From: a virus
Taxonomy: Duplodnaviria; Caudoviricetes
Direction: 5' to 3' (one strand)
DNA: 64,000 nucleotides
Virus record (IMG/VR): IMGVR_UViG_3300031994_000020
Of the stretch, positions 6,684 through 49,384 are shown one piece after another. Numbering within the stretch: position 1 is the first letter of the stretch; each line of letters begins with the position of its first letter. Made by a program: the position numbers and the translations under genes. The notes beneath the pieces were generated by a model. It was not told the origin of the DNA and did no database searches. It saw nothing but the letters and a program-made list of their open reading frames with translations.

Positions 6684-7712
6684 TTATTCTTTAACTAATT
6701 CTTTTAATTCTTCAAGTATAAGGTCTACTGCCTCAACCTGATCTCTTGTGACATCCTTCATTTTCTTTCCCTTGCCCAGATAACGTTCAATAATCTGAGA
6801 AATACGAGGCTGCCAATATTCTCTAAATTTAATACCATCATCAGTTTCGGCTTTAGCATCTGTAGAACCAGGAATATTAGCTATGATTTCGCTAAATTCT
6901 TTCATCATTTTATCAAAATCTAAATCTTTACTTGTGTCTATATAAAGATTATTTGATTTATCAGTAAAATATTCTGTTCCATCTTCTTTCATCTGCTTAT
7001 CAATAGCATCACTAATAGCTTTAACTAAATCATTATATGTAAAGTCTATATAATCTGGTGTATATTTGAAGCGGGAGCCAGCTACATATCGAGGAGTTCC
7101 ACGCATAAATAACTTGGTAGATGTTGCACCATCCGCAGTTTGCACTGATCTTGAATATGCTATAATATCGCACATACGAGATACTATATTTCTAGGGCGA
7201 GTTCCCAATGTAGGAACTATTTGGTTAAATTCTTTACCAGTTTCATCAGTAAAAGTCTTATCAGTAGCATGGCTTATAAGTACAAGACCATAATTCATTT
7301 GTACTATTGAACGAAGTGCTTCATCGAATTCCTTACCAACGAGAGCATATCCTTTTCCATATCCAATATCACCAATAGCATCAACATTATTATTAGCACA
7401 TATATATTTTTCACAATAATCATAAGCAATATCTGCGGTATCTATAATAATTGTTTCAAACTTAGACTGTACTTCAGGATCTTTTAATTGACGAAGTGCT
7501 CTCCTAAATTCACTCTATGAATTAATAGGTTGAGCCATTGCTCCGGGAATTGCATTGTAGCCTTTTTCAAATGCTAAAAGCAAATGATTAGGGAACTTAG
7601 TTGCAGTTGTTGTCTTTCCAGACTTAGGTTCTCCGTAGAAGAAGACTGAATATCCGCGCATATCACGACTTACTTGATGTGGTTTTATATCTAATAAATT
7701 AAAATCTGCCAT
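6684..7712 (-). CDS. Sak4-like AAA ATPase; one gene read through TAG 7515-7517
   Basis: YGEPKSGKTT...AQPINS(TAG)SEFRRALRQL...IIIDTAD...GYGKGY...LISHA; the two ORF-track fragments are in frame (343 codons). Confidence 0.85.
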
Positions 7713-9389: not shown

Positions 9390-10184
9390 TTACTCATTGT
9401 CAAATACAATCAACTCATTAGCATACGGTAATGTTTTTATAAAATCACAAAACTGCCGCCATTCTGTAAGTTTATGATTTTTTCTCCATTTATATATATT
9501 GCGGAGCACCGCATAATCCGCAGTCCATGTACGTGTCTGGAGCCAGCTTTCTGGAAGTAAACGAATAAGCTCCTTCCAATATCTTATGTCTTTTGTTTCA
9601 AGATAGCGTTTCCTAAGACATTCACAATGACAAATTATATCATCCCATATATCATCAATATAAGCATCAGGATTATATGGTTCTTGATTATATACTAATA
9701 AAGAACTATCATAATCATCCATTTCAAAGCATTCTCTTGTAATAGGAGTTGATGCTAACTTATGCATGGTTGAAGTTGAATTAGTCGTAGTCCCAACTTT
9801 GTAGGTGTCAGCTTCTTTCTACCAAAATAATGGTGCTGTGATGTCTATACTAACAAAAATCTGGCGGAGGAACTTGTCATTAGGAGAACCAGCTTTAATC
9901 ATACGCTGCGCAAGATCAAGATCATTTTTCCCAATAAAAGCATATTCATTAGCGTATTTACCCCATTGAAGAATTCCTTTATCGTATAACTTATCTCTTT
10001 CTTCAACAATATTTTCAGGGTCTTCATTATAAGAATATATTACTTCATCAGCGACATTTATTAGCCACTCTTCATTTTCCGCAATACCAAATAAACTATC
10101 TGATTTAGCATAACTTTCCATAGGATGTCTTAATCCTCTGAAAGCATTTTCCCAATTACCTGTCCAAGCTTTTTTAAATTTCAT
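9390..10184 (-). CDS. ThyX-like (flavin-dependent thymidylate synthase-like) phage protein; read through TAG 9819-9821
   Basis: KFLRQI..SIDITAPLFW(TAG)KEADTYKVGTTTNSTSTMHKL...RKNHKLTEW; fragments in frame (265 codons). Confidence 0.7.
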
Positions 10185-10807: not shown

Positions 10808-11527
10808 TTATATTTCTCCTTTTATATCTTCATATATTTTTTTAATTTCTTCTTCTAAAGAAGTAAATTTATTAAATCTATAAAGAATAATATTATGTTC
10901 TTTACAATATATATTCTTTAAATTATCTATATATTGCAATCTTAAAAAATCATTTTGAGTTAATTTCTAATTTTCTTCATAATTAAAATGCTGTCTTCCA
11001 TCATATTCAATTAAACAATAAATTTTATTATTATGAAAAATTGCAAAATCAAAACGTGGATAACCTCCTTTATTAGTAATTAAATCTTTAAAACTAAATT
11101 CTTTTTTATATTCAATTTTATAAAAATTTAACTAATAAGAGATTTGAGTTTCTCCCTATGACGAAACACATCCACAACTTTTTGAATTTCCGTCTATTAA
11201 ACTACCTCTAAAAACCTCTTTTATTGTACCACAATTTTGACATTCACATATCTAAAAATTAGGTTTTTTAGCTTTATCAATTACTTTCTAAAAACCAAAA
11301 GTCTTTCCTATTAAATTATCTTTAATATGTAATGGTCTATCTTTAGCTGCACAACTTTTACATTTAGTTTTAAGATTATCTACTCTTACTGAACGAATAT
11401 TTCCACATTCTAAACATTTACATTTCTAATATCCGCGATGTTTTTCATTAGTTAAATCATTATCTTTTTCAATAATTTCATTAGTTCCAATAATTTGTCC
11501 TGGAGTAAAAATTAAAGATGCTGGCAT
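10808..11527 (-). CDS. Free-standing homing-type endonuclease (CxCxCG repeats plus PD-(D/E)XK/Vsr-like domain) with 5 internal TAG
   Basis: Missed by the ORF track. GY(TAG)KCKCLECG, GF(TAG)KV, NF(TAG)ICECQNCG, SCGC, RFDFAI, IEYDGRQHF; TAGs at 11426, 11288, 11252, 11156, 10967. Confidence 0.8.
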
Positions 11528-11528
11528 T

Positions 11529-12623
11529 TTATCCTATCCCCTTATTTCCATTTAAACCATAATTATATGTGTCATACAGTTCAATGTAATACTTTTCTTT
11601 TTCATCCAGTAATTTTGCATCACATTCTTCAAGAACTTCAAAAGCAAAATTAGATAAACCGCTTTCTCTCATAGCTTTATATAATTTATTTTCAGTAGTT
11701 ATATTACCTACTCCTAAAGCATTTTTACAATGCTGTTTCTATCTATCACAAATATCAACACTTTGACCTATATATGCAAGTCCTGTATTTAAATCTGTAA
11801 GTTTATATATTCCACAGGCAGTAGCTTTTCCTATAATCTGCGGGAACCGCACTTTCGCAATAGGTTGATAATAATTACTCTAAATTATTTTATCTATAAC
11901 AATAGCATTAGTAATTTGAGATTGAATTGATTTTAATAATTTTATATCTTTAAGATTAACTTCTGACATTTTTAATCTGAAGTTATCATTATTTTCTTTT
12001 ATTTCTTGCTCTCTTAATTGAGCTTTAAGTGCGGCGTCGCGGGTAGAACGAATCTTGTCAAGGACTCCTTGAGCCGCCGCGATTTCTTGATTAATTTTTT
12101 CTTTTTCTTCCTCTAACTATTTATTATTTTCTTCTTTTGTTAATTCTAAATTCTTTATTTCCCGCTCTTGTGCATCTGCATATGATTGATTTAATCTTTC
12201 AAGATTCTCATTATATTCTTTTTCTTTTTCTTCATAACTTTGAATAAGTGCATTACAATAATTTTCAAATGCTACTTGAGATAATTTTTTTTGATTATCA
12301 ACTGTATTTGTTACATTTTTCTGTAAATCTTCTAACTGTTGTTGTTTATTTTTTATATTAGAATCAATATGTTCTAATGTCATTTTTTGTTCATGTATAT
12401 CAAGTTTATATTGTTGAAGAGTCTGCTCATTTTGAGCAATTTCTTCATTTTTTTGTTCTATTAAAGAATCTAATTCATTACTTCGCTCTTGTTTTAAATC
12501 ATTAGCTTTATCTATTTCTGCATTTATTTGGTGAGTTTGCTTTTTAATTCTCCTTATCTAAACAGAACTAGACATAGCTAACATCAGTCCAATAAAAAAC
12601 ATTAATGCAGAAATCTATGTCAT
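11529..12623 (-). CDS. N-terminal TM helix, coiled coil and C-terminal GIY-YIG domain protein with 5 internal TAG
   Basis: MT(TAG)ISALMFFIGLML...KII(TAG)SNYYQP...CGIYKLT...AYIGQSVDICDR(TAG)KQH; 365 codons in frame. Confidence 0.8.
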
Positions 12624-13331: not shown

Positions 13332-13400
13332 TTATGATTTCATTTTTATATATTCCTCTTCGGTTATTATAGGAATATTTAATTTTGCAGCATCTTTATT
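13332..13400 (-). pseudogene. Orphaned former 3' end of ligA (BRCT tail)
   Basis: Encodes NKDAAKLNIPIITEEEYIKMKS-TAA, parallel to the current LigA end KAKQLKIKIISEEEYLKMKTS. Confidence 0.75.
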
Positions 13401-14289
13401 TTAAAACAAATTCACTTGTTTCTAATAATAAATCTTTAAGTGATATATTGTTTAAATGGATATAAGGTATTCTTATTATAGGTATGTTATGTTCTTTGCA
13501 ATATTGATTTTTAAAGTTGTCTCTTTGCTGTAATTTTTCAAAATTTTCTTTAGTACACCATCCATTATTTGTATAGGTAAAATGTTGTTCTCCATCATAT
13601 TCAATAATATATTTATTATTTATATAAAAATCAAACTTAGCTTTATTTTTTGTTTCTGGAAAAATACAATCTTCAAAACAATGTTGATATTTAAAAGGAA
13701 TATTATTTTCTTTTAAAATAGTAATAATTGTTAATTCTCCAAATGATTTTTGACATCCGCACGATTTTGTTAATCCTTGTATTAAACTAGATTTATTAAT
13801 AATTTTTTTATTACCGCATTTACATTGACATAACCACATAGTCCCATTTTCTGATGGAGCCTGCTCTAATACAGTTAATAGTCCATATTGATTTCCAGTA
13901 ATATCAATTGTTCTTTTTTTTGCACTAACTTTATTACCACAATCTTTACATTGTTTAATATATCCATTTTTTAAATTACTTGTTGTTACATATGTTATAT
14001 TACCACAATTACATTGACACTTCTATTTTCCATCATTAGTTCTTTCTAATACTGTTAATGAATTAAAAGTTTGCCCTAGTAAATTATCACATTTAGATTT
14101 TGCAGTATCATATCTAGAACATCCACAATTAGTAGATCTTCCTCCTTTTAAACTACTTGCTTCTACATATTTCTGAGTCCCGCATTCACATTGACAAAGC
14201 CAATGAATTTTATTCTTAATAGAAATATGTTTATCTAAAACAGTCCATTTACCATATTGTTGACCTGTTAAATCTATAAATTTTCCCAT
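13396..14289 (-). CDS. Homing-type endonuclease (three WxCxCxCG repeats plus PD-(D/E)XK domain); read through TAG 14023-14025
   Basis: HWLCQCECG, GK(TAG)KCQCNCG, MWLCQCKCG, KFDFYI, IEYDGEQHF. Confidence 0.85.
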
Positions 14290-22170: not shown

Positions 22171-23484
22171 TTATGCTTTTTGAGTATATTTTAAATTAAT
22201 CTATCCAGCTCCTGATTTTAATTTACCCTATCCATTCTGCTCTTCAATTATAGTATATATTCCTTTATCTTTTATTGTTCCATTTACTTTATATCCTGCT
22301 CCAGGACCTTGTCGATAGTTAAGCGCACCCGCAGTTACTTTTACTATATAAGGTTTAAATGCGGGAGTCGCCTTTGGCGGAATAGGAGCTTCTTTCACAG
22401 GCTCTGTCTATGTAGGCTGTTTAATTATTGAAGCAGCAGATTCTCCTAAAGAAGCAGTTACTTTATCGGCTAATTCAGCCATTCTTGCCATCATCCAATC
22501 ACCAGGGCAACTTTTCTTTGCGAACTATCTATGTACAGTTAATTTCATTTCATTCTCTTTTGGATTATATGCAATAGCTTTATCTTTGTCAGCAATCCAA
22601 ATAAGTTTAGTTTTATTATATCGTTTACATATATCAATACATAAATCTATTAATTTATTATATACCTTGCTATTAAAAGCATATGGTGTTGTTTTATCTG
22701 ATGCACATTCAATAGTAATTGCTCTATTATCATTTGCAGCGTTTGATGAACACCATGATCTATTAATCTCGTCTACTATTAAACAAACACGACCTTCAGT
22801 TCCTATACCATAGTTACAAGAAGCTTGTCTCCCCTTCGGGAAACAACGACCTATGGCTTCCGCAGTTAATTGACCTACAACACAATGAGGTGTAATTGTA
22901 TCCACCGCATGATTACGTTTCCCGCTATGGTTAGGACTTTTTACTTCACAATCTATTAAAGGAGAATTTCCGCCGGAAGTGTTTCTTACTTCTACTTTTG
23001 TTGCAGTAGGAGTGGAAGTCGCCTGATCATATTTTGTTAAGTTATATGTTTTTACTACATTATATACATTATCAACATAATCCAAAGAAGTAGCATATTC
23101 TGCATCTTTAATAGCTTTAAGATAATCATAAGGATTATTTGCTTGTTTTACTTTTGCATAATTTGAAATATTTATAAATTGAAAATAACCTTCAACACCT
23201 TTTTCCATATTAGCAAAAGAAAACTAAGATGTAGAGATAGGTATATAATTACCATTAATTGTTTGTTCAGAACCAGTATCAGAAAATGTACCATTACTAC
23301 AAGTAACTCTATTAGGTCTATATTTTAAACCAAAATAATTATGATATGTTGCTTTTTTACTTGTTCCAAAAGCACTCTCTAAACATGCTTGAGCAATTGC
23401 GGCAGATGCTACTTTAAAGCCATATTGTTTTGAATACTTTTGACAATATGGAGCAATTGCTTCAATAAATTCTTGTTTAGTCAT
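22171..23484 (-). CDS. Multidomain endolysin (glucosaminidase, amidase_2, SH3b) with 5 internal TAG
   Basis: AQACLES, HNYFGLK, TPHCVVG, ITIECAS, LTVHR(TAG)FAKKSCPG, NG(TAG)GKLKSGAG(TAG)INLKY; TAGs at 23224, 22525, 22408, 22228, 22201; 438 codons in frame. Confidence 0.9.
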
Positions 23485-27294: not shown

Positions 27295-28113
27295 TCAGCC
27301 GAGTAATGAAAGAATACTCTGGTTAGACTGATTGCTCTGTGCGAGCATCGCAGTTCCAGCCTGAATAAGGATCTGGTTGTTGCTATAGCTAACCATTTCT
27401 TTAGCCATATCGGTATCACGAATCTGGCTCTCAGCTGCGGTAGTATTCTCGACTACATTATCAAGATTGCTGATTGTGTGTTCGAGTCTGTTCTGAACAG
27501 CACCAAGATCAGATCTCTGCTCAGATACCTTTGCAAGAGCATCTTTAATCTTTGCGATAGCATCCTGTGCAGCGGTATTATCAGCACCAGCTACAGAAAT
27601 ACCACTTATACCAATACCGCTTGCAGACATTTTATCAATGGATATACCAATGAACTGTCCACTTTCAGCGCCAACCTGGAGATTCTTTGAAGTGAAAGAG
27701 CCATCAAGTAAGTTCTGCTCATTAAAAGTTGTAGTTGAAGCTACACGATTAATTTCGCTCTTGAGGGCCTGGATCTCACTATCGAGATAACCTCTATCAG
27801 TGCTGGTCATAGTATCATTTGAAGCCTGATTTGCGAGAACATTCATTCTCTGAAGCATATCATGTACTTCACCAAGTGCGCCTTCTGCTGTCTGTACACA
27901 TGAAATACCATCCTGTGCATTTGCGGAAGCCTGAGTTAAACCTTTAATCTGTCTACGCATTTTCTCACTTATAGCAAGACCTGCTGCGTCGTCAGCTGCA
28001 CGGTTTACTCTGTAGCCTGAAGATAACTTTTCAGTTGCCTTAGACTGTGTTTTGCTTGTTACACCAAGCATACGGTTGCTGTTCATAGCTCTAAGATTGT
28101 GTTGTACTACCAT
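27295..28113 (-). CDS. fliC: Flagellin (short, D0/D1 domains only)
   Basis: [55 protein letters not shown]. Confidence 0.97.
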
Positions 28114-31446: not shown

Positions 31447-32820
31447 ATGAGTGTAACAAGAGTTATGGGTATTACATCTGGTATGGATACTGAAAGTATC
31501 ATTAAACAATATTCTTCTCGATATACCGCAAAGAAAGATAAAATTTGGAAACAGAAACAATCTTTGCAATATAAAGAAGATGCTTGGAAAGAATTGAATA
31601 AAGATATTTATAGTCTTTATACAAAACTTTCAACTAATAGGCTTTCCGGAACATATCAGAAATCAGAATTAACTTCTTCAAATGAAAAAGTAGCGATTGT
31701 ATCTGGTAATAAAGAGACTAGCTCTCAAGAATTAACAGTAAATCAAATTGCTACTCAAACTTTTATAACAGGTGGAGAAGTTGACAAGAAAGAGCCTATT
31801 GGCGTTAATGGCAATATAACCGTTGTTGTAGGCGGCCAGCACAAAGATTTAAATATTACTCCGGATATGTCTATGGAACAAGTAGCAAAGAAACTTAGTG
31901 AAGCGGGAATTGCTGCAAGTTTTGATGAAAATAATATGAGATTATTTTTATCTTCACAAAAAACAGGAGAAAATAGTGAATTTGATGTAATTGGTGATGC
32001 GGGAGTTCTTGCTGCATTAGGGTTAGGGTCCGCCGCAACAAAAACTAATGGTCAAGATGCTATGATAACTCTTAATGGAGTTCAATTTAAATCAGACAAT
32101 AATCACTTCGATATAAATGGTTATAGTATTGAGGCTAATTCAGTTGGTAGTACGACTATTAAGACTAAAACTGATGATAAGATTTTCGATACAATTAAAG
32201 ATTTTATTGAAACATATAATACTTTAATTAAGAAAATTGATACAGCTTATAATGCAAGTAATAAGGGCTATAAACCATTAACTGATGAAGAAAAAGAAGT
32301 TTTAAGTGAGAAACAAGTTGATGAATGGGAAAAAGTATTAAAAGATTCTGCTTTGTATAAAGATAGTTCTTTATATGAAATAAGTAACGTATTAAAGAAT
32401 ACTATGAGTACCACATCTATTGATGGAATGAGATTATCTACAATAGGAATTAATCTTGGTAATTATTTTACCACAGATAAAAATGAGCGTGGAGTCTATA
32501 CAATAGACGAAGATAAACTCAAAGAAGTTATTAATAAAGATCCGAATAAAGTAACTAATTTCATTACTAAACTATCAGCTAAATTATATGACAATATAGA
32601 CAAGAAAATGAAGTCTACAAATTATAGCAGTGTTTATACTGTATATAATGATAAACAGATTAAAGCTGATATTGAAGATTATGATAAAAAGATTAAAGAA
32701 TGGGAAAAGAAAATCGAGCAGATTGAGGATAAGTATTATAAGCAATTTGCTAAAATGGAAACACTTCTTTCTTCAAGTCAAAGTAAATCCAATTATTTCG
32801 CAAGTTATTTCGGAATGTAA
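31447..32820 (+). CDS. fliD: Flagellar filament cap protein
   Basis: RVMGITSGMDTESII, GQDAMITLNG, IKDFIETYNTLI, YKPLTDEEK..LSEKQVDEWE, YYKQFAKME. Confidence 0.93.
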   Translation: MSVTRVMGITSGMDTESIIKQYSSRYTAKKDKIWKQKQSLQYKEDAWKELNKDIYSLYTKLSTNRLSGTYQKSELTSSNEKVAIVSGNKETSSQELTVNQIATQTFITGGEVDKKEPIGVNGNITVVVGGQHKDLNITPDMSMEQVAKKLSEAGIAASFDENNMRLFLSSQKTGENSEFDVIGDAGVLAALGLGSAATKTNGQDAMITLNGVQFKSDNNHFDINGYSIEANSVGSTTIKTKTDDKIFDTIKDFIETYNTLIKKIDTAYNASNKGYKPLTDEEKEVLSEKQVDEWEKVLKDSALYKDSSLYEISNVLKNTMSTTSIDGMRLSTIGINLGNYFTTDKNERGVYTIDEDKLKEVINKDPNKVTNFITKLSAKLYDNIDKKMKSTNYSSVYTVYNDKQIKADIEDYDKKIKEWEKKIEQIEDKYYKQFAKMETLLSSSQSKSNYFASYFGM

Positions 32821-32866: not shown

Positions 32867-34378
32867 TTATGCAGTTATGGCTTCGTATCTCTTACTGAGA
32901 AGTTTCTGAAGACAGAGTTCCCAGCCAGTCACACCAGTTATAACATTTTCAAAGATTACAGGTGAAGCACCACTTACGTAGGTTACACTTTCATCTTCAT
33001 CGAGGATTGTATTTTCTCTCGCCTGTACGTTCCAATAAATGAGCTTAGGCATCTTGTGACCGTGGCGTGCCCACTTCTCACGAACCTTAGCCATTTCTGT
33101 AGCTACAGGACGATTCTTATGTCTCCAACCATATGAGGTTCCCCAATCAGACATAGCATCAATTTCCATGTCAGAAATGACAACTATTTTCTCAGGTATA
33201 TCTTCTTCTTTTGTAGTAGGACGATCTGCTATTTCAAGAAGCATATCAAAAGTTCTTGTAAGGTCAGTATTCTCACAGAGGTTGGTTCTGTAGATACGTT
33301 CAACCTTATCAACGAAATCTGTTCCTCTTATCTCAATAAGCTGAGGTCTTGAGCTGAAGCTAATGTAGTGATTCTTAAAAGGACCTCCTGCTCTCTCAGC
33401 ACAGTACATACCAAGAGAGATAGCTATATTGATAGGAGCAGATGCTTCGTTACCGGTCATAGAACCTGAAGTATCTACAACGCAAAGCATATTGGACTGT
33501 TTTCCATTGAAATAATCCTTCTGATTATCCCAGTATTTCTCTATCATGGCTCTATCGGTTTCAGAAAGAGAAAAACTACTATTCCAATAGTCCATATGGC
33601 TTGTAGCCTTAGCCACGATCTCATAAGGATAGAGAGTAGCAGCATTTACAGTTGTACTTTCGCTCTTTGCAAACTCTTCATACTTCTTTGCTATGATGTC
33701 ACGTCTAGCAAATGCGTTCTTGTATATAAGTCCAGCCTTAGAGGGAATCTTATCAAATTCAATTTCATCCCATCTGTTTTCAGACATAAGTTTCTCTACT
33801 ATATTAATGCGGGCGCGCAGGTCTGAGAGAATTTTTCTATACTGTTTATGTGTAAGACCAAGGTAGTCCCGCACTTTATTACCCATAGCTATTGTTTCCT
33901 TAGAAGATGCGTTCTCTGAAGGAAGCCACTTTGCAAGTAAAGAAGGAGTCTTGCTTTCAAGATCAATAGCAAGCTGTTCCTTGATGAAATCAAGTGCATC
34001 CTTTTCAACCTTTGTGCCAAAGCAAGCATATACTACGTCATCCCAACGTCTATACTCAGGTATCTGCTTTATGAGTTTGCGGGCTACATTAGCGTACTTA
34101 TTAGCAAGCCAATTAAAGCATATTCTAAAATAGCGGCGTTCACCCTGACCACCACGACAGTCACCAAGATAAAAGAGGCACTTAAGAGCGAGATCTGCAT
34201 TTTCCTCATATGCTTCCTTGAAAAGCAGTATACAGTCCTCATTAGTTCTTGAACGATATGCTCCACCAAAAGCAAACATATCATAGACCTTCTTCATTGT
34301 TGAAGAAAGGGCTGTTCCTCCATTCTCAGTGAGCTTGTAATTTGCATCATTCTTCATTTCATTTAAAAAAGCGTTCAT
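32867..34378 (-). CDS. DUF2828-family (TROVE/Ro60-like helical plus vWA) protein
   Basis: LTENG, GQGERR, RWDD, AKWLPSE, VDTSGSM MIDAS, ISDMEID, IYWNV. Confidence 0.85.
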   Translation of the reverse strand: MNAFLNEMKNDANYKLTENGGTALSSTMKKVYDMFAFGGAYRSRTNEDCILLFKEAYEENADLALKCLFYLGDCRGGQGERRYFRICFNWLANKYANVARKLIKQIPEYRRWDDVVYACFGTKVEKDALDFIKEQLAIDLESKTPSLLAKWLPSENASSKETIAMGNKVRDYLGLTHKQYRKILSDLRARINIVEKLMSENRWDEIEFDKIPSKAGLIYKNAFARRDIIAKKYEEFAKSESTTVNAATLYPYEIVAKATSHMDYWNSSFSLSETDRAMIEKYWDNQKDYFNGKQSNMLCVVDTSGSMTGNEASAPINIAISLGMYCAERAGGPFKNHYISFSSRPQLIEIRGTDFVDKVERIYRTNLCENTDLTRTFDMLLEIADRPTTKEEDIPEKIVVISDMEIDAMSDWGTSYGWRHKNRPVATEMAKVREKWARHGHKMPKLIYWNVQARENTILDEDESVTYVSGASPVIFENVITGVTGWELCLQKLLSKRYEAITA

Positions 34379-36526: not shown

Positions 36527-36586
36527 ATATATTTCCTTTCTTTATCTTATATAAATATTATATCATATTTTTTTTAAAATGTCAAA

Positions 36587-36931
36587 TGGACTTGACGGGA
36601 GTCGAACCCGTGTCCGCGATTCCTATTCCAAATCAATTTTTTACGCAATAGTGTTTTAAAGTGTTCACTCACTGAGCCGACAGGTTATACCTGTTTAGTC
36701 CCACCACTTGTTTTTTCTAAAACAAGAAACTATATAGCCTTTCTTATAAGAGTGAGCATTGACTGGCAAAAGTATTACTCACAATTCCTAAACTCAAGCT
36801 GCAAGAGCAACTTTAGTAGGGAAAGAAACAATTTTCTTTGCGTTTATTTTAAATTAGTGATTGCATAACGCGCATATCATTTCGTGCGAATTGATTTTTT
36901 TATTGAACCTCGTCGAATACCTTACAAGCCC
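36587..36931 (-). ncRNA. ssrA: tmRNA
   Basis: GGGCTTG..TTCGAC 5' end, G3-U70 pair, T-arm ACGGG-TTCGACT-CCCGT; tag reading frame AKKIVSFPTKVALAA-TGA at 36794-36841. Confidence 0.93.
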
Positions 36932-41275: not shown

Positions 41276-43117
41276 TTATCTATCATTATATAGATATATA
41301 TTCTATGCTTCATTCTAAGCACAAACGTCATTTGTTGTCCATGTAATTGATGAGCTTACAAGTGAATGGCTACCTGAAGTTGACATTGCATTTTTCATAT
41401 TTCCGCCAATACCAAAATGGATCTCTTTTCTTTTTTCACCATTTGTTGATTGAAATAAACCATCCTAAGCATTAACATTCATACCCGTCATATTAGTAAT
41501 TGTAATAATATTTTCAAAATTTTTACAATTAGCAAGCATATATCCTACACTTGGACAATTAACTGGTATTGTTAATGGTTGATTAAAATTATAACAATTT
41601 GAAAAAGTAAATGTTAATCTAACGTTACTATTTGGTAATTTTATAGGTTGGTTAAATGAATGAGCACTATTAAACATACTTGTCATATCATAAACAGTAT
41701 CAGGTATATTAATAGGCTGATTAAATGACTAAGCATTATAAAACATGTTACTTGTATTAGTAATGTTATTAGGTATATTAAAAGGTTGGTTAAATGATCG
41801 AGCATTGTAAAACATCTATGTTACTGAACATCCGTTTCCATTATTATACTATTGTATATTTAATGAAGCATTAAATGGACTATTATCAAACATCCTTTCT
41901 GTATTCTGTGCATTTTCAATATATACAGAAGAATTTAAATTACTTGAACTAAAAATACCTGATAATCTTACTGGTTTATTAGAATAAATATTAACAGAAC
42001 TATTAAAATTGTAACAGTAACCAAATGCAGAAGAACAATCAGCCTATTCAAATTTTGAATTACAATAAAAATTCATGGGTTGATTAAAATTTCTACAATT
42101 CTAAAACATTTGATAAGCATTCATTGTTTCAACATAAACAGGACTATTAAAATTAATACAATTTGTAAAACAGTATTGACTCTAAGTAACATTTTTAATA
42201 TTAACAGGACTATTAAAATTAAAGCAGTTATAAAAACAATTAACTATACTTGAATTTAGATTAATATCATCAATAATTATATCTATAGGTTGATTAAAAT
42301 TATAAGCTTCTCTAAAACAATTTACCATATTAGTTACATTATGTGGTAAATTAAGAGGTTGATTAAAATTAAAACAATTTTGAAACGTCCCCATCATCTG
42401 TAAATAAATATTATTAGTAGCATTTGATAATATAGTTATAGATGAATTAAAATTTCTACAATCATAAAGCATATTTCCTATATTCTTAACATTTTCAGGT
42501 ATTGTAATAGGCTGATTAAAATTATTACAATATCCAAATGCAGCAAATAATGATGTGCAAGTTTCTGGAAAATTTACTCTTTGATTAAAACTTTCATATT
42601 GCTACATTAAATAATCCAAATTTGTAGCGTCTTCAGCTATTGTAATAGGCATATTATAAGCATTTTGAAAACGATTCATAGGGAATGTTCCACCTATAAT
42701 AGTATTATTAGTAAAAGATATTGAAAAATCTACACTTTCACTATAAATCTAAGATTTAATATATCCTGCACTGTGTTCTATATTACTTTTTAGCTAGGTG
42801 ACCCTCTAGGAAGTACCATAATAATCTATATTAAAAAAATTATCATAATTCACAGGATTATTTTTTAAATTTGAATAAAGATAATCCATAGATGATATTA
42901 AATTTTCATTAATATACTTTTCTACTGTTATACTAGCATCAGTACCACCTGTTGTTTTTGTTAATATATGATAACGATATACAGTAGAAGATCCACCGCC
43001 AGTATTTATGTTATTAATGGCGGCCGCCATTTCAGAAGGCTTATAAGTTGTTGCAACTCCCGCCTTGCTTCTTATACTATTTGCTATATCTAAAAAGATA
43101 TTTGTTAATGTACTCAT
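41276..43117 (-). CDS. BspA/DUF285-like repeat surface or fibre protein with 13 internal TAG
   Basis: One 614-codon frame joining three ORF-track fragments; repeats of MFxNCxxFNQPIxIP. Confidence 0.8.
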
Positions 43118-44993: not shown

Positions 44994-45085
44994 CAGGAGC
45001 TGTAGGACTCGAACCCACACCCGAGGCTTTGGACACCTCTGTCCCGGTTTTAGAGACCGGTGTGCTGCCATTACACCAAGCTCCC
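44994..45085 (-). tRNA. Amber suppressor tRNA(CUA) derived from tRNA-Trp, with a 25-nt variable arm
   Basis: CCGGT-CTCTAAA-ACCGG (anticodon at 45051-45053); acceptor GGGAGCT/AGCTCCT-G73; T-arm identical to the neighbouring tRNA-Trp. Confidence 0.93.
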
Positions 45086-45094
45086 AATTAATAG

Positions 45095-45165
45095 CAGGAG
45101 TTGTAGGACTCGAACCCACCTCTCTGGTTTTGGAGACCAGGGCACAACCCCTATACCAAACTCCC
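45095..45165 (-). tRNA. tRNA-Trp(CCA)
   Basis: CTGGT-CTCCAAA-ACCAG; acceptor GGGAGTT/AACTCCT-G73. Confidence 0.92.
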
Positions 45166-45171
45166 ATAATC

Positions 45172-45281
45172 AAGACACTATATAAGTTTGGATTCGAACC
45201 AAAATCTTTAAACTTTTACATCTAATATTCTACCTTTAAACTACTCTCCCTTTGCGGAAGCAACATCGCTGTTAGTGTCTT
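45172..45281 (-). ncRNA. ACAGCAA-type stem RNA 6 enclosing a degenerate tRNA
   Basis: AAGACACTA-ACAGCGA...TAGTGTCTT; cargo with D-like arm and TTTGG-TTCGAAT-CCAAA. Confidence 0.7.
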
Positions 45282-45516: not shown

Positions 45517-45518
45517 AG

Positions 45519-45591
45519 TACCCAAAGTAGGATTCGAACCTACAAAAACTACGTCCTTAGCGCAGTGCGTATGCCATTCCGCCATTTGGGC
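45519..45591 (-). tRNA. tRNA-Leu(AAG), short variable loop
   Basis: CTGCG-CTAAGGA-CGTAG, Leu-type D-arm, A73. Confidence 0.8.
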
Positions 45592-47482: not shown

Positions 47483-47555
47483 TTCTCATTCTGGGAATCG
47501 AACCCAGTCTCCAACCCTCTTTAGGGTCGGGTGCTTCCCATCACACTCAATGAGA
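47483..47555 (-). ncRNA. tRNA-like RNA with an 8-bp anticodon arm capped by a tetraloop
   Basis: TCTCATT/AATGAGA acceptor, CCGACCCT-AAAG-AGGGTTGG, CTGGG-TTCGATT-CCCAG. Confidence 0.65.
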
Positions 47556-48181: not shown

Positions 48182-48343
48182 AGAAGTCTTATTAACTTTT
48201 TATCTTATATAAATATTATATCATATTTTTTTAAGAAAGTCAAATTTTTTATTTTCTTTATTTTATTTTCCTTTCTTAACTTTCTATAAATATTATATCA
48301 TATTTTTTTATAAAAGTCAAATATGATTTTTTAATAAAGAATA

Positions 48344-48429
48344 CGGGTGCGATAGGATTCGAACCTACATGGAGTTTCCTCGCACTGACGGGTTAACAGC
48401 CCGCTGCCAAGCCTTTTGGCGACACACCC
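48344..48429 (-). tRNA. tRNA-Asn(GTT) with an unusual long variable arm
   Basis: GCGGG-CTGTTAA-CCCGT, 19-nt variable region, G73. Confidence 0.85.
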
Positions 48430-48557
48430 AATTAATAATGCAGACGTTACCACCGCTGCCACCAAAGAATAACTTTCCCAACCTCGTGCACAGGTTGCTC
48501 TGGCCCCCAACTATTAGTTGTTCAGAAAGTTTTTCATGCTACACTTACAAAAGCAAG

Positions 48558-48778: not shown

Positions 48779-49384
48779 TTATTTAAAATAATGATCTTGT
48801 ATCTGCTTTTTAGGGTTCTTTACTGTCGTATTAAAATACAAATAAGAACTCATTTCAATATTTTCACCCTTATAAAACACACTTGTATTTCCATCCAAAA
48901 CATATTTTGCGGCATTTATGGCATCTTCAGGCAAGGTTCCCGCATCATACATTTTCAATGCCTTTGATAAACGCCCATTTGATGCAGGTCCAAATTGTCC
49001 TTTTTCATAAATCACATCTTTTATAGTGTCAGCAAAGTAAGTTTCGTGATTCACTCTGTTCAAAACTACAATCCCCACAGCTTGTTGACCAGCCTCACAC
49101 TGGTTTCCCGCCTCACTCTAAATGATAGAAGATAAATACCTTAAATCTTCTTCATCATAAATTTTCTCCATTTCAATAATTTCTTCTATTATTTCTTCCT
49201 CTTGTTCAACAATAGAACAATCTGAAACAGATACGGTATTAGTAGATACACCCTAATTCAAAATGATAGGGCTGCCATCATGCACTCCCTGATAATATCC
49301 TCTGTAATAAGACTCTCTTAAAACTATAATTGAAAGTGCTAAAATAGCTGTAATTACTAATACTGTTAAAATTTTCTTCTACAT
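48779..49384 (-). CDS. SleB/Hydrolase_2 cell wall hydrolase with N-terminal TM and 3 internal TAG
   Basis: M(TAG)KKILTVLVITAIL...YLSSII(TAG)SEAGNQ...VVLNRV...VIYEKGQF...HYF; 202 codons. Confidence 0.85.

Follow-up and report, generated by a model that had tools for sequence, protein, structure and literature searches.

Among phages, Borges et al. (10.1101/2021.08.26.457843) reported codon reassignments only from TAG to Gln and from TGA to Trp. In the code-15 phages, comprising crAss-like phages, Lak phages and phAss-1 (10.1101/2021.08.26.457843; PMC10607447), a tRNA(CUA) is located within a cluster of tRNA genes, and the genes in which TAG stands for an amino acid are mostly those for lysis and late functions. 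For phAss-1, the change from TAG to Gln was concluded from the authors' own alignments, and an arm of the tRNA was not mentioned (PMC10607447). The term 'variable arm' is absent from both of these studies, and neither of them comments on such an arm. Borges et al. (10.1101/2021.08.26.457843) acknowledge as an open question how phage suppressor tRNAs are correctly charged by synthetases for which the anticodon is a recognition element. Losses of Gln determinants cost up to 10^5-fold (PMC9976931).

In plastids of Balanophora, UAG encodes Trp and is decoded by a duplicated tRNA-Trp with a CUA anticodon. To our knowledge, no other natural case of UAG encoding Trp has been described. The E. coli amber suppressor Su+7, a tRNA-Trp(CUA) that arose by a C35 to U exchange, is charged with Gln by GlnRS (PMC9976931). 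Bacterial TrpRS recognizes the anticodon (C34, C35, A36), G73 and the first pair and top of the acceptor stem, and the identity set of B. subtilis tRNA-Trp includes A1-U72, G2-C71, G3-C70, G4-C69, G5-C68 and G73 (PMC9976931). Because both TrpRS and GlnRS depend on the anticodon, a plain CUA mutant of tRNA-Trp would be expected to be badly charged or mischarged, as is the case for Su+7. Two further groups of RNAs are relevant here, the class II tRNAs (Leu, Ser, Tyr, Sec), which carry a hairpin of a size accepted by the ribosome between the anticodon and T stems, and the anticodon mimics in the E. coli thrS operator and in yeast mRNAs for aminoacyl-tRNA synthetases, to which the synthetase is recruited by a stem-loop that imitates the anticodon arm of its cognate tRNA (PMC9976931; PMC6542539).

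The phage locus described here resembles the code-15 phages in the position of its tRNA(CUA) and in the genes that use TAG, but the amino acid is Trp instead of Gln, the tRNA has the body of a tRNA-Trp, and the loop of its arm carries CCA instead of CUG or UUG. With the Balanophora plastid it has in common that UAG stands for Trp and that the decoding tRNA is derived from a tRNA-Trp gene with a changed anticodon. However, the plastid tRNA is an anticodon mutant only, with no added arm reported, and pRF1 has been lost, whereas the phage is a virus presumed to live in a standard-code host and has a second anticodon hairpin. Su+7 is likewise an amber suppressor made from tRNA-Trp, but the phage proteins need Trp at TAG and the phage tRNA adds an intact CCA loop. 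In contrast to class II tRNAs, the arms of which showed loops of 3-6 nt in 80 of 81 cases and no motif, the phage arm has a 5-bp stem and a 7-nt loop and belongs to a tRNA of the Trp isotype. Finally, the thrS and yeast mimics reside in mRNAs and regulate translation, while the phage mimic lies inside the decoding tRNA and would serve aminoacylation. In the literature, we found neither a phage reassignment from TAG to Trp nor a suppressor tRNA described as having an additional anticodon arm, be it a second one or a decoy; this coverage was incomplete and an earlier description is possible.

The stretch of DNA analysed (64,000 nucleotides, referred to as the window) belongs to a rumen phage genome of about 147 kb, the contig of which comprises 146,601 bp (ENA ERZ27256871). 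The window is phage-like and has a G+C content of 33%, and almost every gene is located on the minus strand. In the region from 34.9 to 48.6 kb, ARAGORN and Rfam identified 22 genes for tRNAs and one for a tmRNA. The features discussed in the following are listed in Table 1.

Table 1. Features of the window with their positions, strands and main characteristics.
Feature	Position	Strand	Remarks
AAA_24/Sak4-like gene	6684-7712	(-)	1 in-frame TAG
Two homing-endonuclease genes	10808-12623	(-)	HNH-like, 7 TAG; GIY-YIG, 5 TAG; 0 TGG in both
HNH endonuclease	13396-14289	(-)	TAG opposite Trp of two internal repeats; 1 TAG, 4 TGG
Endolysin (Glucosaminidase + Amidase_2 + SH3)	22171-23484	(-)	5 in-frame TAG; Pfam, PHROGs
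Flagellin (Flagellin_N + Flagellin_C)	27295-28113	(-)	
Flagellar cap protein FliD	31447-32820	(+)	
DUF2828/DUF7788 protein	32867-34378	(-)	Ro60/TROVE-like
tmRNA	36584-36931	(-)	80.8 bits; within the tRNA cluster
DUF285 repeat protein	41276-43117	(-)	13 TAG, 1 TGG
tRNA(CUA)	44994-45085	(-)	92 nt; ARAGORN; Rfam RF00005
Variable region of tRNA(CUA)	45019-45043	(-)	25 nt: 4-nt linker, hairpin 2, 4 nt, then T stem
Hairpin 2	45023-45039	(-)	stem GAGGU/GCCUC; 7-nt loop GUCCAAA 45028-45034; CCA 45030-45032
Hairpin 1	45044-45060	(-)	canonical anticodon-arm position; 5-bp stem, loop CUCUAAA; anticodon CUA 45051-45053
tRNA-Trp(CCA)	45095-45165	(-)	71 nt; ARAGORN; Rfam 49.2 bits
tRNA-like element	45179-45250	(-)	directly upstream of tRNA-Trp; Rfam 36 bits, no ARAGORN call
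tRNA-Leu(AAG)	45518-45591	(-)	74 nt, without long arm
tRNA-like gene heading the cluster	47483-47555	(-)	irregular anticodon loop
tRNA-Asn(GUU)	48343-48430	(-)	21-nt arm, GAAA-type loop, not anticodon-like
SleB/CwlJ-like cell-wall hydrolase	48779-49384	(-)	3 TAG, 0 TGG

Two relatives with the same type of tRNA(CUA) were obtained. One of them, L087, was reached by walking along a 143-kb cattle-rumen scaffold, the proteins of which are about 90% identical to those of the window and which also contains in-frame TAG; the other, L107, stems from a 144.6-kb metagenome contig found in a second metagenome scan. In total, three Trp-type members with two distinct arms are thus available. No further Trp-type member was found among viral contigs with the exact arm, a pattern of T arm and acceptor stem or two loop-based patterns, nor in the first metagenome scan, and the pattern search of bacterial genomes returned none apart from one chance match that is not a tRNA. 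Relatives identified through the GT2 gene lacked synteny in the region of the tRNA cluster, and no relative of the M28 peptidase was present in IMG/VR. In two of the contigs reached through the GT2 gene (L071 and L072), in-frame TAG was mostly found opposite Glu in other loci (20/48 and 26/44), which could be an artefact of near-identical contigs; the stretch fetched from these two contained no CUA tRNA.

The tRNA(CUA) matched Rfam family RF00005 over the full model (positions 1-71) with 54.2 bits at a gathering score of 29 (E 1.8e-9), and tRNA-Trp(CCA) is located 9 nt upstream of it. Both tRNAs have the acceptor sequence GGGAG[C/T]T, G73 and the anticodon-arm flanks in common, their T arms are identical, and their acceptor stems differ by a single compensated pair. 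After removal of the 25-nt variable region, tRNA(CUA) was 82% identical to tRNA-Trp (alignment score 36), compared to 76% (score 13) for the next-best tRNA of the window and 66% for tRNA-Gln. An initial annotation of this region had described the gene as a tandem paralogue of tRNA-Trp that does not resemble the phage tRNA-Gln and that has gained a 25-nt arm with a GAGGU/GCCUC stem, and the coordinates, common features and identity values agree with this description. In the relatives, the tRNA-Trp beside the CUA tRNA is much less similar (L087) or absent (L107), indicating that the tandem pair is not a simple recent duplication in every member.

With respect to the known identity elements, the acceptor stem of the window tRNA(CUA) consists of G1.U72, G2-C71, G3-C70, A4-U69 and G5-C68. 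L087 has A1-U72 but A4-U69, and in L107 the complete B. subtilis set is present, including A1-U72 and G4-C69. The discriminator G73 occurs in all three. Positions 34-36 are CUA and not the C34, C35 and A36 of the Trp identity, and within tRNA(CUA) a CCA triplet occurs only in the loop of the second hairpin. A body derived from tRNA-Trp is supported by the identity to the neighbouring tRNA-Trp and by the acceptor set of L107. No other CUA tRNA was found, and this one is the only candidate for the amber decoder that the genome requires.

Hairpin 1 is the regular anticodon arm, for which ARAGORN sets the anticodon at position 33. The second hairpin, within the variable region, likewise has the size and shape of an anticodon arm, and its loop differs from the tRNA-Trp anticodon loop CUCCAAA by one change at the first position. 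This sequence was present in nine of 11 genuine tRNA-Trp anticodon loops from the fetched loci, including that of the neighbouring tRNA-Trp. Against a reading as a copy or as an anticodon in cis, the window loop begins with G and not C, and the closing pair is U.G. In L087, the same tandem arrangement occurs with an identical arm and a compensatory change in the T stem. The arm of L107 is homologous, its stem has diverged to GACGGG/CCCGUC, and its loop is exactly CUCCAAA. Between the stems of the window and L107, two double-compensatory pairs and one change from a wobble to a Watson-Crick pair were observed while UCCAAA remained invariant; with only two distinct arms, a single comparison underlies this covariation. 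The 81 distinct Leu, Ser and Tyr tRNAs from the same loci, which served as a control, carried neither a Trp nor a Gln motif in the arm, and a single one had a 7-nt arm loop. Single-sequence folding of tRNA(CUA) for minimum free energy yielded no cloverleaf and was uninformative. Judged by these comparisons, the arm copies the anticodon stem-loop of tRNA-Trp, including its CCA. As hairpins 1 and 2 are identical at 13 of 17 positions in L107 (10 of 17 in the window), the two-hairpin tRNA most likely originated from a tRNA-Trp gene in which the anticodon arm was duplicated in tandem, after which one of the copies would have changed from CCA to CUA.

Comparison with homologous proteins showed that TAG encodes Trp, and the phage uses it as such in a subset of its genes, namely the lysis genes, the gene for the DUF285 protein and the homing-endonuclease genes. 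When TAG was read as a sense codon, fragments were joined to full-length genes on the minus strand. The minus-strand ORFs obtained in this way, which by construction end at TAA or TGA, contain 69 in-frame TAG, and no gene that must end at TAG was seen in the window. One apparent TAG stop, at 9819, lies at the junction of two ORFs that both correspond to one and the same gene in the locus L083. Ten TAG sites were checked, seven of which fell on columns dominated by Trp in the homologues and three in unconserved stretches. Among 120 homologues of the endolysin, four of the TAG columns held W in 118, 120, 74 (with F in a further 42) and 112 sequences, and the fifth TAG is situated in a linker. 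The TAG column of the AAA_24/Sak4-like gene held W in 116 of 120, the four 'Q' being code-15 translations of TAG, and the conserved column of the SleB/CwlJ-like hydrolase held W 76, F 22 and Y 17 times. A code of the NCBI table 32 type fits these data, with TAG opposite Trp and both TAA and TGA remaining stops. Code 15, with TAG as Gln, was rejected, since the TAG columns hold W and the few Q are the database's own code-15 translations.

The use of the two Trp codons differed between genes (Table 1). Genes rich in TAG were nearly devoid of TGG, and replication genes contained TGG only. The three homing-endonuclease genes between 10808 and 14289 write Trp wholly or partly as TAG, suggesting that they are adapted to, or gated by, the code of the phage. 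In L084, a relative with 85% identity, TAG does not occur in frame, and one gene ends with TAG; at six of 13 aligned sites, a TAG of the window corresponds to TGG in this relative. As such a close relative uses the standard code, the comparison suggests that the host of the phage uses it as well. The public proteins P0126 and P0246, which belong to the window's contig and the cattle-rumen relative, were translated with TAG as Gln. The Q residues in Trp columns stem from code 15; gene calls published for the clade thus assume Gln and place an incorrect residue wherever TAG occurs.

When contigs were scanned by pattern for long-armed CUA tRNAs, many large phage contigs were identified. In this family (loci L001-L061 and L088-L126, and phAss-1), the tRNA(CUA) is 85-98 nt long. 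In the 49 distinct sequences that were analysed, phAss-1 included, a short stem closes a 7-nt loop within the arm, and this hairpin was independently predicted by RNAalifold, with all three predicted pairs covarying. The arm loop contained CUG or UUG, both of which are Gln anticodons, in 49 of 49 sequences and in register in 45 of them. The most frequent loop was CUCUGAA (24), next to UUCUGAA/UUCUGAG (7), CUUUGAA (5), CUCUGAC (3) and others; genuine tRNA-Gln loops in the same loci were CUUUGAC, CUCUGAA and similar. After filtering against near-identical contigs, TAG in the Gln-arm loci was found opposite Q at 112 of 322 conserved sites, followed by K (34) and E (30), and in the Trp-arm loci opposite W at 16 of 33. 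These counts showed that, on the level of sequence, the arm anticodon and the meaning of TAG go together in two families. An enrichment of W at TAG in the Gln-arm loci, seen in a first pass, was due to near-identical contigs and ORFs in the wrong frame and disappeared with stricter filters. In phAss-1 (OQ749652.1, 62445-62532; L246:1552-1639), a tRNA with a CUG arm adjoins an arm-less CUA tRNA, and several other loci also have the armed tRNA(CUA) in tandem with an arm-less, Gln-like CUA tRNA. Since phAss-1 and others carry such a short tRNA as well, the arm is not obligatory for amber suppression.

Three further over-long tRNAs were noted, a tRNA-Ile(UAU) with GAUAA in its arm (L015:7718-7813), a tRNA(CAU) with an arm that repeats CUCAUAA (L213:11325-11411) and a CUA tRNA of 99 nt with a 6-bp arm closing GUCUGCU (L003:3481-3579). 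These may be further cases of the same relation between arm and anticodon.

On balance, we favour the explanation that TAG is read as Trp by means of a two-hairpin derivative of tRNA-Trp, in which the CCA of the arm would supply the anticodon for TrpRS in cis while CUA decodes. The CCA loop would thereby restore the determinant of TrpRS that is missing from the anticodon. With G73 and most of the acceptor pairs kept and the CCA loop offered on the arm, the host TrpRS would still charge tRNA(CUA) with Trp, and no phage synthetase would be needed. On the ribosome, hairpin 1 would read UAG, and hairpin 2 would be tolerated in the same way as the long arm of tRNA-Ser, tRNA-Leu or tRNA-Tyr. A cost in fidelity is not expected, because decoding by hairpin 2 would read UGG, which is also Trp; an arm of the Gln type, if it were to decode, would read CAG or CAA and hence be harmless as well. 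Alternatively, the equal-sized hairpins might take turns in stacking on the D stem, one during charging and the other during decoding. TyrRS, which is related to TrpRS, contacts the long arm and the anticodon stem of tRNA-Tyr together; this precedent makes it geometrically conceivable that TrpRS reaches the loop of a variable arm, and proves nothing. In many TAG-to-Gln phages, an arm with CUG or UUG in its loop may serve the same purpose. We consider it about as likely as not that this is a general and hitherto undescribed architecture, in which the synthetase reads a second anticodon stem-loop on the variable arm while the true anticodon reads the stop codon. The triplet on the arm would be the cognate one, CCA for Trp in this phage and either CUG or UUG for Gln in no fewer than 49 other phage tRNAs.

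The initial annotation had proposed an amber tRNA for Trp, the arm of which may block GlnRS or recruit a dedicated TrpRS of the phage, resulting in an orthogonal pair. The amber-Trp part is upheld by TAG opposite W in the database alignments, by the HNH repeats and by TGG in L084. The proposed role of the arm was not borne out, as the arm turned out to copy the tRNA-Trp anticodon stem-loop with its CCA. That the arm acts as an anti-determinant against GlnRS, LysRS or a non-discriminating GluRS, or as a handle for a phage TrpRS, is in our view unlikely, although in E. coli Gln is attached to tRNA-Trp(CUA) (PMC9976931) and two TGA-recoded Jade phages encode a TrpRS (Borges et al., 10.1101/2021.08.26.457843). 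No gene for TrpRS or a release factor, both of which the initial annotation had suggested to look for, was detected among window ORFs of at least 300 aa, and 48 kb from a relative with 91% identity likewise contained none; in the phage itself this search covered the window, with about 56% of the genome outside. In addition, an anti-determinant would need neither the invariant UCCAAA of the Trp-type loop nor CUG or UUG in the Gln family. The CCA arm rather points to the ordinary TrpRS of the host than to an orthogonal pair. We similarly doubt that the arm is a tolerated relic of the duplication or a generic stabiliser and that the host TrpRS accepts CUA unaided. Such a reading would be in line with the duplication origin visible in L107, with the arm-less CUA tRNAs that occur beside armed ones, and with the plain tRNA-Trp(CUA) used by Balanophora. 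However, the loop is kept while the stem turns over by compensation, in the Trp type as well as in the Gln type with its 49 members, the arm loops interchange CUG and UUG as two anticodons for Gln, and in each family the anticodon on the arm agrees with the amino acid that TAG is inferred to encode.

It appears quite improbable that the CCA hairpin addresses a different partner, such as the T-box leader of trpS or trp genes in the host, an enzyme that modifies tRNAs or the Ro60-like protein of the phage, or that the tRNA exists in two states, one for charging and one for decoding or with dual reading of UGG and UAG. The adjacent hairpins are of equal size, and either could therefore stack on the D stem, and the phage encodes a Ro60/TROVE-like protein as well as tRNA-like RNAs. 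Yet the molecule has a complete cloverleaf with a canonical CUA loop and is the only amber decoder found, and the link between arm anticodon and amino acid is most simply explained by a synthetase. A non-decoding mimic of the YrlA type as partner of Ro60 was rejected on account of the full cloverleaf, the canonical CUCUAAA loop and the lack of the extra closing stem. Hardly tenable, finally, is a class II tRNA charged by SerRS, LeuRS or TyrRS, or TAG as Gln according to code 15 and the public annotation. G73 together with a long arm does resemble tRNA-Ser, and the database translated the contig with TAG as Q, but both identities are contradicted by the alignments, in which the TAG columns hold W and not S, L, Y or Q, any Q there being code-15 TAG. 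The 7-nt, anticodon-like loop is likewise unlike 80 of 81 class II arms, and an identity as Ser, Leu or Tyr conferred through the long arm was rejected on these grounds.

With UAG as Trp in a virus and the CCA arm as the probable means of charging, the two-hairpin architecture offers a concrete hypothesis for how suppressor tRNAs are charged, which is open to simple aminoacylation assays. If true, it would represent a general and portable uncoupling of decoding from aminoacylation identity. An arm working as proposed would be a natural modular device that moves amino-acid identity onto any anticodon and that would be useful for genetic-code expansion. Through duplication of the anticodon arm, codons could also be reassigned without any intermediate tRNA that lacks its identity element.

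Several other features of the tRNA cluster and its surroundings were observed. The tmRNA is kept in L087. The tRNA-like element upstream of tRNA-Trp may be a Y-RNA-type partner. The tRNA-like genes that head the cluster occur in the window, in L087 (31-103) and in L107 (5829-5899), and their irregular anticodon loops are read by ARAGORN as a 4-base 'aaag' or as 'tca'. The long arm of tRNA-Asn(GUU) and the short tRNA-Leu(AAG) are included in Table 1. In addition, the phage encodes a flagellin and the flagellar cap protein FliD, and both genes are kept in the cattle-rumen relative.
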